Assembly (NCBI GenBank): GCA_046262635.1
Contig: JBHEMK010000067.1
Coordinates: 8,152-72,151, forward strand
DNA: 64,000 bases
Reading direction: 5' to 3'
Origin: Gaiellaceae bacterium
Lineage (GTDB): Bacteria > Actinomycetota > Thermoleophilia > Gaiellales > Gaiellaceae
The position numbers and the translations under genes were made by a program. The notes beneath the pieces are model-generated. The model ran no database searches. It was not told the DNA's origin and saw nothing but the letters and a program-made list of their open reading frames with translations. Within the stretch, counting starts at the first letter, position 1. Every line of letters begins with the position of its first letter. This document shows positions 7,984 through 13,440 of this stretch, piece after piece.

Positions 7984-8994
7984 TCAGCCGACGCCATGCG
8001 CCTCCGCGCCGAGGAGCCCTTCTTTGCCGGCGAGGGCGCGGAGCTCGACACCGACCTGCTCGAGCTGGCCGCCCGCATTCTGCCGCCGCAGCTCCTCGAA
8101 GCGCGGCCGCCCCGCCTCGTCGTCCTCGAACAGCTCGCGCGCGAACGCGCCGCTGCGGATCTCCTCGAGCAGCTTCGTCATGTTCTCGCGCACATGATCG
8201 TCGACGATGCGAGGCCCGCGCGAGAGGTCCCCGTACTCGGCGACGTCGGAGATCGAGTAGCGCATGTACTCGAAACCGCCCTCGTAGATCAGGTCGACGA
8301 TCAGCTTCAGCTCGTTCAGGCACTCGTAGTAGGCGATCTCGGGCTGGTAGCCGGCCTCGACGAGTGTCTCGAAGCCGGCCTTGATCAGGGCCGTGACACC
8401 GCCGCAGAGGACCGCCTGCTCGCCGAAGAGGTCGCTCTCGGTCTCCTCCGCAAAGGTCGTCTCGAGCATGCCGACGCGGCCGCAGCCGATCCCGGTGCCG
8501 TAGGCGAGCGCGAGCTCGAGCGCGCGCCCGCTCGCATCCTGGTGGACAGCGACGAGCCCGGGCGTGCCGGCACCGCTCTTGAACAGCTCCCGGACGCGGT
8601 GGCCCGGGGCCTTCGGCGCCACCATGACGACGTCGTGCGCGGCGGCCGGCGTGATCCGGCCGAAGTGGATGTTGAGCCCATGGGCAAAGAGCAGTGCTGC
8701 GTCGGGCTCGAGGTTGGGCTCGATCTCCTGCTCGTAGACGCCCTTCTGCAGGTGGTCCGGAACGAGAATCGCCACGACCTGGGCCCCGCGGGTCGCCTCG
8801 GCGACGGTGCGGACCGCGAGGCCCGCGTCGTCGGCCGCCTCGCGGGAGCGACTCTCCGGCCGCAGGCCGACCTCGACCTCGACGCCCGAGTCCCGCAGGT
8901 TGAGTGCGTGCGCGTGGCCCTGGCTGCCGTAGCCGACGACCGCGACCTTTCCTGAGAGCAGGTCGAGATTGCCTTCGCGGTGGATCGTGGCCAT
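7984..8994 (-). CDS. ilvC: ketol-acid reductoisomerase
   Basis: 336 aa with [28 protein letters not shown] lies upstream. Confidence 0.95.
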
Positions 8995-9013: not shown

Positions 9014-9532
9014 TCAGCGCAGCACGAGCTGGCTGCGGCGGACGCTGGTGGGGGAGGAGGAGGCGCGGCGGAGGCCGATGCGCCCTGTGCGGACGAGCTC
9101 CTTCACGCCGTGCGGGCGGACGAGCTCCTCGAAGGAGTCGATCTCCTCGGGGGTCCCGGCGAGCTCGAAGACGATCGCGTCGGGGCCGAGGTCGGCGATG
9201 CGTGCGCTGAAGACGTCAGCGAGCGCCATCAGCTCGGTTCGCCGCGTGGGCGGGGCGGAGACCTTGATCAGGGCGAGCTCACGCTCGATCGACTCGCCCG
9301 CGGCGAGCTGGGTGATGCGCAGCACGTTCACGAGCTTGTGCATCTGCTTCTCGATCTGCTCGAGCGAGCGGTCGTCGCAGTCGACCTGGAGGGTGATCCG
9401 GGAGATGTCCGCGCGCTCGGTCGGCCCGACCGCGAGGCTCTCGATGTTGAATCCGCGCCGGGCGAACATGTTCGAGATCCGGGCGAGCGCACCGGGCTTG
9501 TTCTCGACGAGCACGGAGAGCGTGTGCTTCAC
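9014..9532 (-). CDS. ilvN: acetolactate synthase small (regulatory) subunit
   Basis: 172 aa with the ACT domain [31 protein letters not shown]. Confidence 0.95.
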
Positions 9533-9686: not shown

Positions 9687-11405
9687 TCACGTCGAGACCA
9701 CCTCGCTCTCGCCCGGATACTCGACCAGGTCGAGCGCAGCGGCGCCCGCGGGAATCATCGGGAAGCAGTGCTCATGGGCATCGACGCGGCAGTCGACGAC
9801 GGCGGTCCGGCCGCACCCGATCGCCTCACCGAGCGTCTCCTCGAGGTCGTCCTCCCGGTCGACGACGAAGCCGCGCGCACCGTAGGCCTCGGCGAGGGCG
9901 GCGTAGTCCGGCAGGTGGTGCGTGAGCTCGATCTGGGAAAAGCGCTCCTCGAAGAACATGTCCTGCCACTGACGAACCATACCGAGGTGGCCGTTGTTGA
10001 CGATCACGACGACGATGGGGAGGTGCTCGAGCACCGAGGTCGCGAGCTCCTGCTGGGTCATCTGGAAGCAGCCGTCGCCGTCGACGCAGATCACCGTCGC
10101 GTCGGGGCGGGCAGCCTTGGCGCCGATCGCGGCCGGGAGGCCGTAGCCCATGGTCCCGAGGCCGCCCGAGGTGATGAACGAGCGCGGCCGGTCGCAGAGC
10201 AGGTACTGCATCGCCCACATCTGGTGCTGGCCGACCCCGGTCGTCCAGATCACGTCGTCTCGGCCGGCGGTCAGCGCCTGCAGCGTCTCCAGCACCGGCT
10301 GCGGCTTCATCGGGCCGCCGCCACCGCCGTAGCGCAGCGGGAACTCCTCGCGCCACCGGCGGATCTGGGCGAGCCATGGCTCGGTGGCGTCCGGCCGGTG
10401 CACCTCGCGGAGCTCGCGGGCGAGGTCGGCCAGCACGGGCTTCAGCGGCCCGACGACGGGAACGTCCGCGTGGCGGAGTTTGTCGATCTCGGCGGAGTCG
10501 ACATCGAGGTGGATCACCGTCGCGCCAGCCGCGAAGGACGCGAGCTTACCCGTGACCCGGTCGTCGAAGCGTGCGCCGACGGCCACGAGCACGTCACACT
10601 TGTTGATCGCGTAGTTCGACCACTTCGGGCCGTGCATCCCCGGCCAGCCGAAGTGCAGCTCGTGCGTCTCGGGGAAGCCGCTCTTGGCCATCAGGGTCGT
10701 CACCACGGGCAGGCGCCCGCTCTCGGCGAGCTCGAGTAGCTCGGGACACGCATCGGCGTTCAGCACACCGCCGCCGACGTAGAGAACCGGGCGCTCGGCC
10801 GAGGCGATCCGCTTCGCCGCCTCGCGGATCTGGCGGGGGTGCCCTCGCCGCGGCGGTCGCCAGCCGGGCAGGTCGACGGTGTCCGGATACCCGAAATCGA
10901 GCTCGGCCTCCTGCACGTCGCGCGGGATGTCGACGAGGACCGGTCCGCAACGGCCGGTGCTCGCAACGTGGAAGGCGGCCTTCATGATGTGGGGCAGGTC
11001 GGCGACGTCCTTCACGAGCCACGAGTGCTTGACGACCGGGATGGTGATCCCGGTGATGTCGCACTCCTGGAACGCATCCGTGCCGATCAGGTGCGAGCGA
11101 ACCTGGCCGGTGATGCAGACGAGCGGCGTCGAATCCATCCACGCGTCGGCGATCGGGGTGACGAGGTTCGTCGCTCCGGGGCCGGAGGTGGCGAGCGCGA
11201 CCCCGATGTTGCCGGAGGCGCGCGCGTAGCCCTCGGCCATGTGGCCGGCTCCCTGCTCGTGGCGGGCGAGCACGTGCCGGACGGTCGTGCCGCGGGCGAA
11301 GGCGTCGTAGGTCGGCAGGATCGCCCCGCCCGGAAGACCGAAGACGACGTCGACGTCCTCCGCCTCGAGCGAGCGAAGGACGGCGTCGGCCCCGTTCATC
11401 CTCAT
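9687..11405 (-). CDS. ilvB: acetolactate synthase large subunit (TPP enzyme)
   Basis: ATG 11405 (GGGAGG upstream, ATGA overlap with the upstream gene) inside ORF 9687..11690. Motifs: MRMNGADAVLRSLEAEDVDVVFGLPGG, GGLGTMGYGLPAAIGAK, VDGDGCFQM. Confidence 0.95.
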   Translation of the reverse strand: MRMNGADAVLRSLEAEDVDVVFGLPGGAILPTYDAFARGTTVRHVLARHEQGAGHMAEGYARASGNIGVALATSGPGATNLVTPIADAWMDSTPLVCITGQVRSHLIGTDAFQECDITGITIPVVKHSWLVKDVADLPHIMKAAFHVASTGRCGPVLVDIPRDVQEAELDFGYPDTVDLPGWRPPRRGHPRQIREAAKRIASAERPVLYVGGGVLNADACPELLELAESGRLPVVTTLMAKSGFPETHELHFGWPGMHGPKWSNYAINKCDVLVAVGARFDDRVTGKLASFAAGATVIHLDVDSAEIDKLRHADVPVVGPLKPVLADLARELREVHRPDATEPWLAQIRRWREEFPLRYGGGGGPMKPQPVLETLQALTAGRDDVIWTTGVGQHQMWAMQYLLCDRPRSFITSGGLGTMGYGLPAAIGAKAARPDATVICVDGDGCFQMTQQELATSVLEHLPIVVVIVNNGHLGMVRQWQDMFFEERFSQIELTHHLPDYAALAEAYGARGFVVDREDDLEETLGEAIGCGRTAVVDCRVDAHEHCFPMIPAGAAALDLVEYPGESEVVST

Positions 11406-12298
11406 ACGGCCTCCCGGTGGAACTCGGCGTTCGACCAGGCGAGCGGAAGCTGCGCCAGCACCGTGTCGGCGTGACCTCGGGTCGACGGCGGTTTCGCGCG
11501 CGCGTGCACTTGGCCGACCGCCGAGGAGAGCGTCGCGGCGGCGCGGCGCTCGCCGAGCCCCTCGCCGACCATCAGCGCGGCCGCAAGCAGCATCGAGCTC
11601 GGGTCGGCGACGCCCTGGCCGGCGATGTCGTCGGCGGCTCCGTGCGTTGCGCCGAAGACGCTCGGGCCGCCCGGGGCCAGGCGGCCCCACGCGGCGGTCC
11701 GGTTCTGCGCGAGGCAGGCGGCCAGGTCGCCCGCGGTCGTCGCCAGCTCGGGCGAAACGACGAGGACGTCGAATCGATGCGGCGCGAAGACGAGCGCACG
11801 CACCGCCTCGGCGGTTCGGAGCCGCTCCACGTCGAGCCCGTCGTGACGCGCCTCGAGCGCCGCCGCGCGGCCGTTGTCGACGTCCACGAGCGAGATCCGC
11901 GCGCGGCTCTCCCGCGCGAGGTCGAAGCTCCGCTCCAGCGTCCAGTCCCAGGCGTCGGCCCTGAGCGGTGCTACCACCGAGAGCTCCGCGGACCGGTCGA
12001 AGCGAACGCGGACGATGGAGGCGCGAAGGTCGAGCTCCTCCTCGAGCGTCTCGAGCTGGGCGCCGTCCTCCGAGGCGACGAGCACTGCGTCGGCGCCGAG
12101 GACCGCTCGCCGGGACGAGCTGGGGAACGGGTGGCCGAACCGCATGATTGCGTCGGCACCGAACGGTACGTGCAGCTCGTCGACGGCGAAGCCGTGCAGC
12201 CGCGAGGCGGCGCCGACTGCCCGGCTCGCCTGAGCCATCACCTCCGGGCCGATGCCGTGCCGGGAGAGGCAGGCGACGGTGTAAACGGTGCGTCTCAC
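11402..12298 (-). CDS. isopropylmalate/isocitrate dehydrogenase-fold protein, short (298 aa) and apparently lacking the catalytic residues
   Basis: GTG 12298 (GTGA overlap with the leuA stop) inside ORF 11402..13021. It retains RHGIGPEV and GATHGAADDIAGQGVADPSSMLLAAALM. DKANV is replaced by DVDNG and GDILSD by GDLAAC. No VRExTEGxY block is visible. Confidence 0.75.
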   Translation of the reverse strand: MRRTVYTVACLSRHGIGPEVMAQASRAVGAASRLHGFAVDELHVPFGADAIMRFGHPFPSSSRRAVLGADAVLVASEDGAQLETLEEELDLRASIVRVRFDRSAELSVVAPLRADAWDWTLERSFDLARESRARISLVDVDNGRAAALEARHDGLDVERLRTAEAVRALVFAPHRFDVLVVSPELATTAGDLAACLAQNRTAAWGRLAPGGPSVFGATHGAADDIAGQGVADPSSMLLAAALMVGEGLGERRAAATLSSAVGQVHARAKPPSTRGHADTVLAQLPLAWSNAEFHREAV

Positions 12299-13440
12299 GC
12301 GGTCACCTCGGCGAAGAGCTCGTGCAGGCCAATGGGGCGACCCGTGTCGGCCAGCGCCTTGAACCGGCGAAACGCCGCCGTCAGCTCCTCGTGGCTGAGC
12401 TCGATTCCGGCCTCGTTGCAGGCGCGGGCGAACGCGTGCCGGCCAGAGTGCTTGCCGAGCGGCAGCGTCATCGTGACACCGAGCTCCCCGGGATCCATGA
12501 TCTGGTACGTCGAGAGATCCTTGAGCAGCCCGTCCTGGTGGATGCCGGCCTCGTGCGCGAAGGCGTTGGCGCCGACGATCGCTTTGTTGCGCGGCACGGC
12601 GTAGCCGCTCAGCCGCTCGACGATCCGCGAGGCTGCGCCGATCTGCGACGCGTCGATCCCCGTCTCGGCGCGCAGGGCCGTGCGCCGCACCCGAAGCGCC
12701 ATCACGATCTCCTCGAGCGCGGCGTTGCCCGCCCGCTCGCCGATGCCGTTGATCGTGCACTCGATCTGACCGACGCCCGCCTCGATCGCCGCGAGCGAGT
12801 TCGCAACCGCGAGACCGAGGTCGTCGTGGCAGTGCGCCGAGAGCGTCACACCGGCGAGCTCGGGGCAGAGCCGGCGGACCTCGTTGAGGAAGCCGACGTA
12901 CTCCACCGGCAGCGCGTAGCCGACCGTGTCGGGCAGATTGACCACCGTTGCGCCCGCCCGGACGGCTGCACGGCAAACCCTCGCGACGAAGGCCGGATCG
13001 GAGCGGGTGGCGTCCTCGCACGAGAACTCGACTTCAGCCACGCGCGCCACCGCGGCGGCGACCGAGCGGGAGGCTTGCTCCACCACCTCGTCGGGCTCGA
13101 GCTGCAGCTTCTTCTCCATGTGCACCGGGCTCGTTGCGATGAAGAGGTGGATCCGCGACCGGTGGGCGTCGGCCAGCGCCTCGGCTCCGGCGGCGATGTC
13201 TTCCGGCCGCGTTCGGCAGAGGCTGGCGACGGTCGCGCGCCCGGCGGTGCGTGCGACGGCTCGCACGCCCTCGAAGTCGCCGGGCGAGGACACGGCGAAT
13301 CCGGCCTCGATCACGTCGACTCCGAGACGCTCGAGCTGCTCCGCGATCTCGGCCTTCTCGTGCGGGAGCAGCGCGATTCCCGGCGATTGCTCGCCGTCGC
13401 GAAGCGTCGTATCGAAGATGGCGATCCTGCGCGAACTCAC
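12295..13440 (-). CDS. leuA: 2-isopropylmalate synthase family enzyme, short form without the C-terminal LeuA-dimer/regulatory domain
   Basis: 381 aa with IFDTTLRDGEQSPG, HCHDDLGLAVANSLAA and GIGERAGNAALEE. AAGGAGG lies 5 nt before GTG 13440. Confidence 0.9.
   Translation of the reverse strand: MSSRRIAIFDTTLRDGEQSPGIALLPHEKAEIAEQLERLGVDVIEAGFAVSSPGDFEGVRAVARTAGRATVASLCRTRPEDIAAGAEALADAHRSRIHLFIATSPVHMEKKLQLEPDEVVEQASRSVAAAVARVAEVEFSCEDATRSDPAFVARVCRAAVRAGATVVNLPDTVGYALPVEYVGFLNEVRRLCPELAGVTLSAHCHDDLGLAVANSLAAIEAGVGQIECTINGIGERAGNAALEEIVMALRVRRTALRAETGIDASQIGAASRIVERLSGYAVPRNKAIVGANAFAHEAGIHQDGLLKDLSTYQIMDPGELGVTMTLPLGKHSGRHAFARACNEAGIELSHEELTAAFRRFKALADTGRPIGLHELFAEVTA

Follow-up and report, generated by a model that had tools for sequence, protein, structure and literature searches.

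Eukaryotes offer well-known cases of pseudoenzymes that control their active relatives; in the biosynthetic operons of bacteria such proteins are rare. In the Iso_dh superfamily, human IDH3 beta and gamma and yeast IDH1 are catalytically incompetent paralogues that are kept as regulatory partners in the eukaryotic NAD-isocitrate dehydrogenase (NAD-IDH). HisZ reportedly works together with HisG-S, the short form of ATP phosphoribosyltransferase. HisG-S is a first-step enzyme without a C-terminal regulatory domain, and it co-occurs with HisZ, which is a catalytically dead paralogue of another enzyme. The present article concerns a gene, herein called X, in a stretch of 64,000 nucleotides from a Gaiellaceae bacterium (GenBank assembly GCA_046262635.1, contig JBHEMK010000067.1, positions 8,152 to 72,151; "the window"). 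X is a degenerate gene with the fold of 3-isopropylmalate dehydrogenase (IPMDH), the product of leuB. Three statements about it are firmly supported. The protein shows the IPMDH fold but lacks the catalytic apparatus of that enzyme; it is a paralogue derived from the LeuB of its own lineage, maintained by selection and locked 5′ of ilvB; and it is not the LeuB of the cell, as a canonical leuB for this reaction lies elsewhere on the contig.

Compared with LeuB (TIGR00169; Thermus thermophilus IPMDH, PDB 1IPD, 1HEX, and 2Y42), X shares the two-domain fold, the N-terminal G.GIGPE motif, and a similar cofactor loop, and it arose from the Gaiellaceae LeuB lineage. It differs by being about 30 to 50 residues shorter, by the absence of the arm/clasp, Lys185, Tyr139, and Asn187, by the replacement of Arg104, Arg132, and Asp217, and by a new conserved C-terminal tail. 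By analogy, the noncatalytic subunits of NAD-IDH may be regarded as the closest precedent in the same superfamily, because X is likewise a paralogue of a coexisting catalytic Iso_dh enzyme and has impaired catalytic residues. However, the clasp and most of the residues for ligand binding are still there in the NAD-IDH subunits, which take up allosteric ligands at the pseudo-active site and form dimers with the catalytic paralogue. X lacks a clasp and shows no conservation at its old site, and ilvB, not leuB, is the gene to which it is coupled. The absent clasp argues against the canonical Iso_dh dimer interface.

The likeness to HisZ and HisG-S is one of analogy only: a short 2-isopropylmalate synthase (LeuA) that lacks the LeuA_dimer domain never occurs without X (26 of 26 genomes). 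The folds are unrelated, and HisZ is not known apart from HisG-S, while 11 of the 37 X-bearing genomes have no short LeuA. Noncatalytic Iso_dh paralogues are thus already known from eukaryotic NAD-IDH, and a bacterial one derived from LeuB would appear to be new. A literature search found no bacterial LeuB-derived noncatalytic paralogue or IPMDH pseudoenzyme, no such accessory gene before ilvB, and no third subunit of acetohydroxyacid synthase.

Loss of the IPMDH active site

X scores 63.7 bits against Pfam Iso_dh (PF00180; gathering cut-off 27) in two separate stretches, residues 8–99 and 164–264. This score, together with a two-domain IPMDH/IDH fold in the predicted model, places it in the Iso_dh superfamily. 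Against the LeuB equivalog model TIGR00169 it reaches 73.1 bits, where the cut-off is 353.2, and hence it falls outside LeuB proper. Solved IPMDH structures align only to the N-terminal 95 and the last 115 to 150 residues of X, and the middle of IPMDH has no counterpart.

The motif strings on which the original prediction was built are all present, namely RHGIGPEV (residues 13–20), LEEELDLRASIVRV (85–98), DVDNG (139–143), and GATHGAADDIAGQGVADP (216–233). The catalytic positions were mapped by hhalign, with a 40-member family profile aligned to the genome's own canonical LeuB, and by a MAFFT alignment of 43 sequences comprising 31 family members (36–100% identity) and 12 Iso_dh enzymes, mostly LeuB. 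The outcome is given in Table 1. The original prediction had held, from an alignment by eye, that the catalytic residues are gone, and this is borne out: the active-site residues Tyr139, Lys185, and Asn187 fall in deletions, three further ligands are replaced throughout nearly the whole family, and the profile alignment recovered no catalytic Arg/Lys/Tyr/Asp set. One detail had to be corrected. GDILSD had been equated with GDLAAC, a register that is off by four residues; the profile alignment pairs FGDILSD with LATTAGD, and therefore the equivalent of Asp245 is retained, as the only one of the three metal aspartates. The conclusion that the site is lost is otherwise unchanged.

Table 1. Fate of the IPMDH catalytic and ligand positions (T. 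thermophilus numbering) in X and in 31 family members
Position	Role	X	Family
Tyr139	Catalytic	Deleted	Deleted 31/31
Lys185	Catalytic	V140 (hhalign) or deleted (MAFFT)	Deleted 30/31
Asn187	Active-site turn	Deleted	Deleted 31/31
Arg104	Substrate	V96	Replaced 30/31
Arg132	Substrate	A110	Replaced 30/31
Asp217	Metal	A163	Replaced 30/31
Arg94	Substrate	E86	E 12, K 10, R 5 (of 31)
Asp241	Metal	T187	Acidic 18/31
Asp245	Metal	D191, kept	Acidic 17/31

Three deletions are common to every member of the family. The first, of about 11 residues, carries the Glu87 loop; the second, of 23 to 28 residues, carries the Tyr139 loop and the arm/clasp; and the third removes the six residues of the KANVLE turn (Lys185–Asn187). 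The positions of the old active site that survive vary freely across family members, which looks like relaxed constraint on a dead site. X is almost certainly unable to oxidize or decarboxylate 3-isopropylmalate, a loss of activity that we infer.

Predicted structure

An AlphaFold2 model of X was computed from a 40-sequence alignment and has a predicted local distance difference test score (pLDDT) of 85.8 and a predicted template modeling score of 0.87. Foldseek returns T. thermophilus IPMDH first (template modeling score 0.84–0.87 by query, about 25% identity). The IPMDH fold is hence kept in the model. The strand formed by residues 104–111 is followed after two residues by the helix 114–130, and the arm is therefore absent. 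The least confident internal segment is the cofactor loop, at approximately residues 218–233. A search for look-alikes in the ESM Atlas gave nothing beyond the X family itself.

Family, selection, and origin

In a search of 5.8 billion proteins, X has relatives in more than 120 clusters at 56–75% identity, all of 283–313 residues, and the clusters that carry a label come from Gaiellaceae or Actinomycetota genomes. An exhaustive profile search yields 83 representatives at E ≤ 1e-30, of which the full-length ones have 300–317 residues and match in a single stretch. Among GTDB species genomes, X is confined to one family of its class, where it occurs in 11 of 23 sampled genomes, as opposed to none of 127 genomes from its other families. 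When 185,579 species genomes were scanned with a pattern, 165 related loci emerged; the 80 that were kept for analysis all come from genomes classed as Gaiellaceae, Gaiellales, or Thermoleophilia, and nearly all of these genomes are metagenome-assembled.

The gene is not a broken one, but a member of a conserved family under purifying selection. The ratio of nonsynonymous to synonymous substitution rates (dN/dS) of X is 0.12, 0.27, 0.27, and 0.32 in four genome pairs, compared with 0.11–0.17 for the flanking ilvB. More than 30 residues are invariant across 40 sequences, and the open reading frame stays intact at about 300 residues down to 36% identity. Between the same genomes, X diverges about 1.6 to 1.9 times faster than LeuB. 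Conserved features specific to the family are the C-terminal tail LP...EF and the helix motif MLLAA..L.EGLGER.

In a maximum-likelihood tree, X forms one clade (SH-like approximate likelihood ratio test support 100) on a long stem of 1.0 substitutions per site and joins the clade of Gaiellaceae LeuB (support 83). The position in the tree points to a lineage-specific duplication that would have been followed by rapid remodeling.

Source annotations of X relatives vary between "3-isopropylmalate dehydrogenase," "isocitrate/isopropylmalate dehydrogenase," and "hypothetical protein"; the first of these labels is almost certainly wrong. Five database entries that appear as X–IlvB or LeuA–X fusions (P0149, P0154, P0157, P0218, and P0266) were rejected as frameshifted translations with long out-of-frame stretches rich in Arg, Pro, and Ala, and they probably originate from error-prone long-read assemblies.

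The canonical leuB and other Iso_dh genes

The assembly (2.99 Mb, 80.6% complete) contains four full-length Iso_dh genes. A search of the genome for a second leuB located a canonical one at C67:4207-5190, on the same contig and strand as X and about 15 kb downstream of it. Its product scores 363.5 bits against TIGR00169, above the cut-off, and carries every canonical motif; a leuC-like gene of the aconitase family adjoins it. Canonical LeuB was likewise found in all five other X-bearing genomes checked, at 66–78% identity and usually 12 to 23 kb from X.

The 5′ end of the canonical leuB (L011:5150-5215, minus strand, about 3 kb before the start of the window) lacks any ATG, GTG, or TTG before the conserved N terminus VVCLPGDGIGPEV, and the first canonical start codon would remove the glycine-rich loop. 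A CTG seven nucleotides past a GAGG motif is a likely start, as is a second CTG that forms a CTGA overlap with the stop codon of the upstream gene. The fourth full-length Iso_dh paralogue of the genome lies on another contig (C147; L004:1399-2562). It encodes 387 residues and is very divergent: it scores 162 bits against the Pfam model, falls short of every NCBIfam equivalog, and sits on the longest branch of the tree.

Genomic neighborhood and the short LeuA

X is the second gene of an operon in the order short leuA, X, ilvB, ilvN, ilvC, hom, thrC, thrB, ilvD. The coordinates are collected in Table 2. As originally described, X is intact and overlaps its neighbors on both sides, and both four-nucleotide overlaps are real. 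A Shine-Dalgarno–like GAGG motif lies within short leuA about 8 nucleotides 5′ of the GTG start of X, and a similar GGGAGG motif lies inside X, 5′ of the ilvB start. The place had been called the leuB slot, which is loosely right in that X follows a leuA-like gene; its invariant neighbor is ilvB. A plus-strand open reading frame opposite X (11417-12604) is an antisense open frame of a kind that is common in high-GC DNA.

Table 2. Gene X and adjoining features in the window
Feature	Positions	Strand	Basis
ilvC, ketol-acid reductoisomerase	7984..8994	-	
ilvN, acetolactate synthase small (regulatory) subunit	9014..9532	-	
ilvB, acetolactate synthase large subunit, 572 aa	9687..11405	-	TIGR00118, 759 bits
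ATGA overlap of X stop and ilvB ATG start	11402..11405	-	
X, degenerate IPMDH-fold gene, LeuB-derived paralogue, 298 aa	11402..12298	-	Residue mapping, AlphaFold2, Foldseek, conserved family
GTGA overlap of short leuA stop and X GTG start	12295..12298	-	
Short leuA, 2-isopropylmalate synthase, 381 aa	12295..13440	-	HMGL-like and HCS_D2; NF002086, 542 bits

Across 80 species-level loci, ilvB lies directly downstream of X in all 77 that offer room for it, and the short LeuA gene lies upstream in 69 of 78. The same arrangement was followed in a family sample of 121 genomes, in which an ilvB orthologue is found in 53 and X in 37; the two are adjacent on one contig in 35 of the 36 genomes that have both. 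Seventeen genomes carry ilvB without X, and 15 of these have a conventional LeuA. An IlvB tree places X on both sides of the deepest split and implies that it was lost at least four to six times. All of the inferred losses map to branches that lack the short LeuA. Because the short-LeuA branches make up 59% of the branch length at risk, the corresponding P value is roughly 0.03; a test on independent pairs was underpowered, with too few pairs.

The slot of X was inspected in 12 ilvB-bearing genomes without it: ten hold nothing related, one holds a remnant of X, and one a tartrate-dehydrogenase–like paralogue. The remnant, in genome G141 (L048:2873-2980), preserves only some 36 codons from the end of X (…ATTREF…), recognizable directly upstream of ilvB, and represents a decayed copy; the congener G239 keeps an intact X. 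The paralogue, in genome G221 (L052:1599-2621), is an intact Iso_dh gene of the tartrate/D-malate dehydrogenase–like type, 380 nucleotides upstream of ilvB. It has all catalytic motifs, is 39% identical to LeuB, and stands outside the X family. No ilvB orthologue was found at E ≤ 1e-150 in 68 of the 121 genomes, including 28 of 63 high-quality ones; many Gaiellaceae may be auxotrophic for branched-chain amino acids, with genome incompleteness as a caveat to this count.

The short LeuA consists of a TIM barrel and the HCS_D2 linker, and its match to NF002086 covers model positions 4–377 of 516. The leucine-binding regulatory domain LeuA_dimer (PF08502) is absent from it, and none was found in the 80.6%-complete assembly. 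A short-LeuA orthologue is present in 26 of the 121 genomes, where it abuts X directly upstream in every case, and 23 of these 26 are devoid of any LeuA_dimer. An unpublished genome, G175, figured only as a negative and carries none of the conclusions. Ten of the 11 X-bearing genomes without the short LeuA have a conventional LeuA elsewhere, and one genome carries a full-length leuA, a short leuA, and X in tandem. A strict anticorrelation, in which X would replace the regulatory domain of LeuA, was considered and discarded, as LeuA_dimer also occurs in 13 of the 37 X-bearing genomes. The rule that survives runs one way only, from the short LeuA to X. In the sample as a whole, LeuA_dimer was not seen in 89 of the 121 genomes.

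A second gene of the short LeuA/homocitrate synthase type lies on another contig of the same genome (C109; L013:1420-2595). It encodes about 390 residues of the archaeal LEU1 type without a regulatory domain, is 34% identical to the short LeuA of the window, and has orthologues in many genomes of the family. Citramalate synthase and homocitrate synthase are possibilities for its product.

Possible functions of X

The original prediction had offered a pseudoenzyme, a scaffold or regulatory subunit, and an enzyme of new specificity. The unrecovered catalytic set, the second leuB, and the purifying selection on X support this proposal, in which X may be a noncatalytic partner or a new enzyme. We find it somewhat probable that X is a lineage-specific pseudoenzyme derived from LeuB that serves as a noncatalytic partner in branched-chain amino acid synthesis. 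In such a scenario, a copy of the Gaiellaceae LeuB would have lost the Glu87 loop, the Tyr139 loop with the arm/clasp, and the Lys185–Asn187 turn, along with most of its substrate and metal ligands, and the canonical LeuB would do the LeuB job. The copy would have kept the two-domain fold and gained the LP...EF tail and the MLLAA..L.EGLGER helix motif. Purifying selection would have held it as a cistron directly before ilvB, usually translationally coupled. The protein would then act as a regulatory, scaffolding, or stabilizing partner of enzymes encoded on its own mRNA; the short LeuA is the first candidate and acetolactate synthase the second. Action through protein contacts is suggested because X is cotranslated with the short LeuA and IlvB, because the tail and the helix motif are conserved specifically in this family, and because the sensor-less LeuA never occurs without X. 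We infer this protein–protein partnership, along with the identity of the partner and the mechanism.

A more specific form of the partner proposal is tentative and carries clearly less weight. X might be a trans-acting regulatory subunit made from a dead LeuB. With a pathway metabolite or NAD(H) as its ligand, it would subject the truncated LeuA, and possibly also acetolactate synthase, to feedback control or activation.

Several observations weigh against a partner role. X is under purifying selection also where the short LeuA is missing (11 of 37 genomes), with dN/dS values of 0.12 and 0.27 there; because it persists in these genomes, its role cannot depend on the short LeuA alone. On at least four occasions X disappeared from lineages that kept ilvBNC, and thus it is not essential to acetolactate synthase. 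The association between the loss of X and the absence of the short LeuA is statistically weak, and the conserved residues R97, R99, R132, R134, R200, and W204 could form a new ligand-binding or active site.

The last point leads to the main rival of the partner proposal, a remodeled enzyme whose new active site would be built from family-specific arginines and tryptophans. It would carry out another reaction on a branched-chain metabolite by means of R97, R99, R132, R134, R200, W204, and D153, possibly with NAD(H) bound. Strong conservation at residues that are not conserved in LeuB speaks for such an enzyme, as do dN/dS values of X down to 0.12 and the cofactor loop HG.A..(I/L)AG.GV.(D/N)P, which is among the best-kept segments in most members. 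The same fold class also includes PdxA, PlsX, and Pta, which perform different chemistry. However, no gap is evident in the pathway, as LeuB, LeuC, IlvBNCD, and the Thr genes are all present, and the equivalents of the old active site vary (Arg94 is E, K, or R; Asp241 and Asp245 are each acidic in about 55%), which indicates relaxed constraint rather than a retuned site. Moreover, some members have a degraded cofactor loop, such as ARHEPEAAG or ASEPDDVAG, and X was repeatedly lost while the operon was kept. A new enzymatic function is rated unlikely.

Less likely still is a regulatory subunit in the manner of IDH3 beta and gamma, which would pair with catalytic LeuB as a heterodimer, by way of the helical dimer interface, and modulate leucine synthesis. 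Its appeal lies in the derivation of X from the lineage's own LeuB, in the retention of LeuB in all six X-bearing genomes examined, and in the existence of noncatalytic Iso_dh paralogues that pair with a catalytic one, IDH3 beta and gamma being among the PDB matches of X. But X lacks the arm/clasp, half of the dimer interface of this family, which IDH3 beta and gamma keep; and leuB lies 12 to 23 kb away and is not cotranscribed with X, which is tightly coupled to ilvB.

A functionless relic, retained solely because translational coupling through its reading frame delivers ribosomes arriving from the leader or leuA to ilvB, would fit the stop/start overlaps on both sides, the evolution of X 1.6 to 1.9 times faster than LeuB, and its several losses with a remnant in one genome. 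It is nevertheless very improbable, as the dN/dS of 0.12–0.32 and the more than 30 invariant residues across 40 sequences reveal selection on the protein itself. The frame is intact over about 300 residues down to 36% identity, and a coupling spacer needs neither 300 codons nor a folded domain (pLDDT 86). That X is a working short-type 3-isopropylmalate dehydrogenase or another β-decarboxylating dehydrogenase, as its score above the Pfam Iso_dh gathering threshold and the name isopropylmalate dehydrogenase in some databases might imply, is hardly credible given the deletion of the catalytic Lys and Tyr (30/31 and 31/31), the replacement of Arg104 and Arg132 (30/31 each), and the presence of a canonical LeuB.

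Implications for Gaiellaceae

A dead copy of LeuB has long been fixed at the head of ilvBNC in a widespread and essentially uncultured family of soil actinobacteria, often beside a LeuA that has shed its leucine sensor. The label "3-isopropylmalate dehydrogenase," almost certainly wrong, could mislead metabolic reconstructions of Gaiellaceae. Should X turn out to be the missing sensor or a partner in assembly, the control of branched-chain amino acid synthesis in these organisms would be explained, and a new case of a dead paralogue recruited for regulation would be added. If X is indeed a regulatory subunit, it would be a bacterial counterpart, in branched-chain synthesis, of HisZ/HisG-S and of IDH3 gamma, and it would represent a previously undescribed control of the entry into leucine and valine synthesis.

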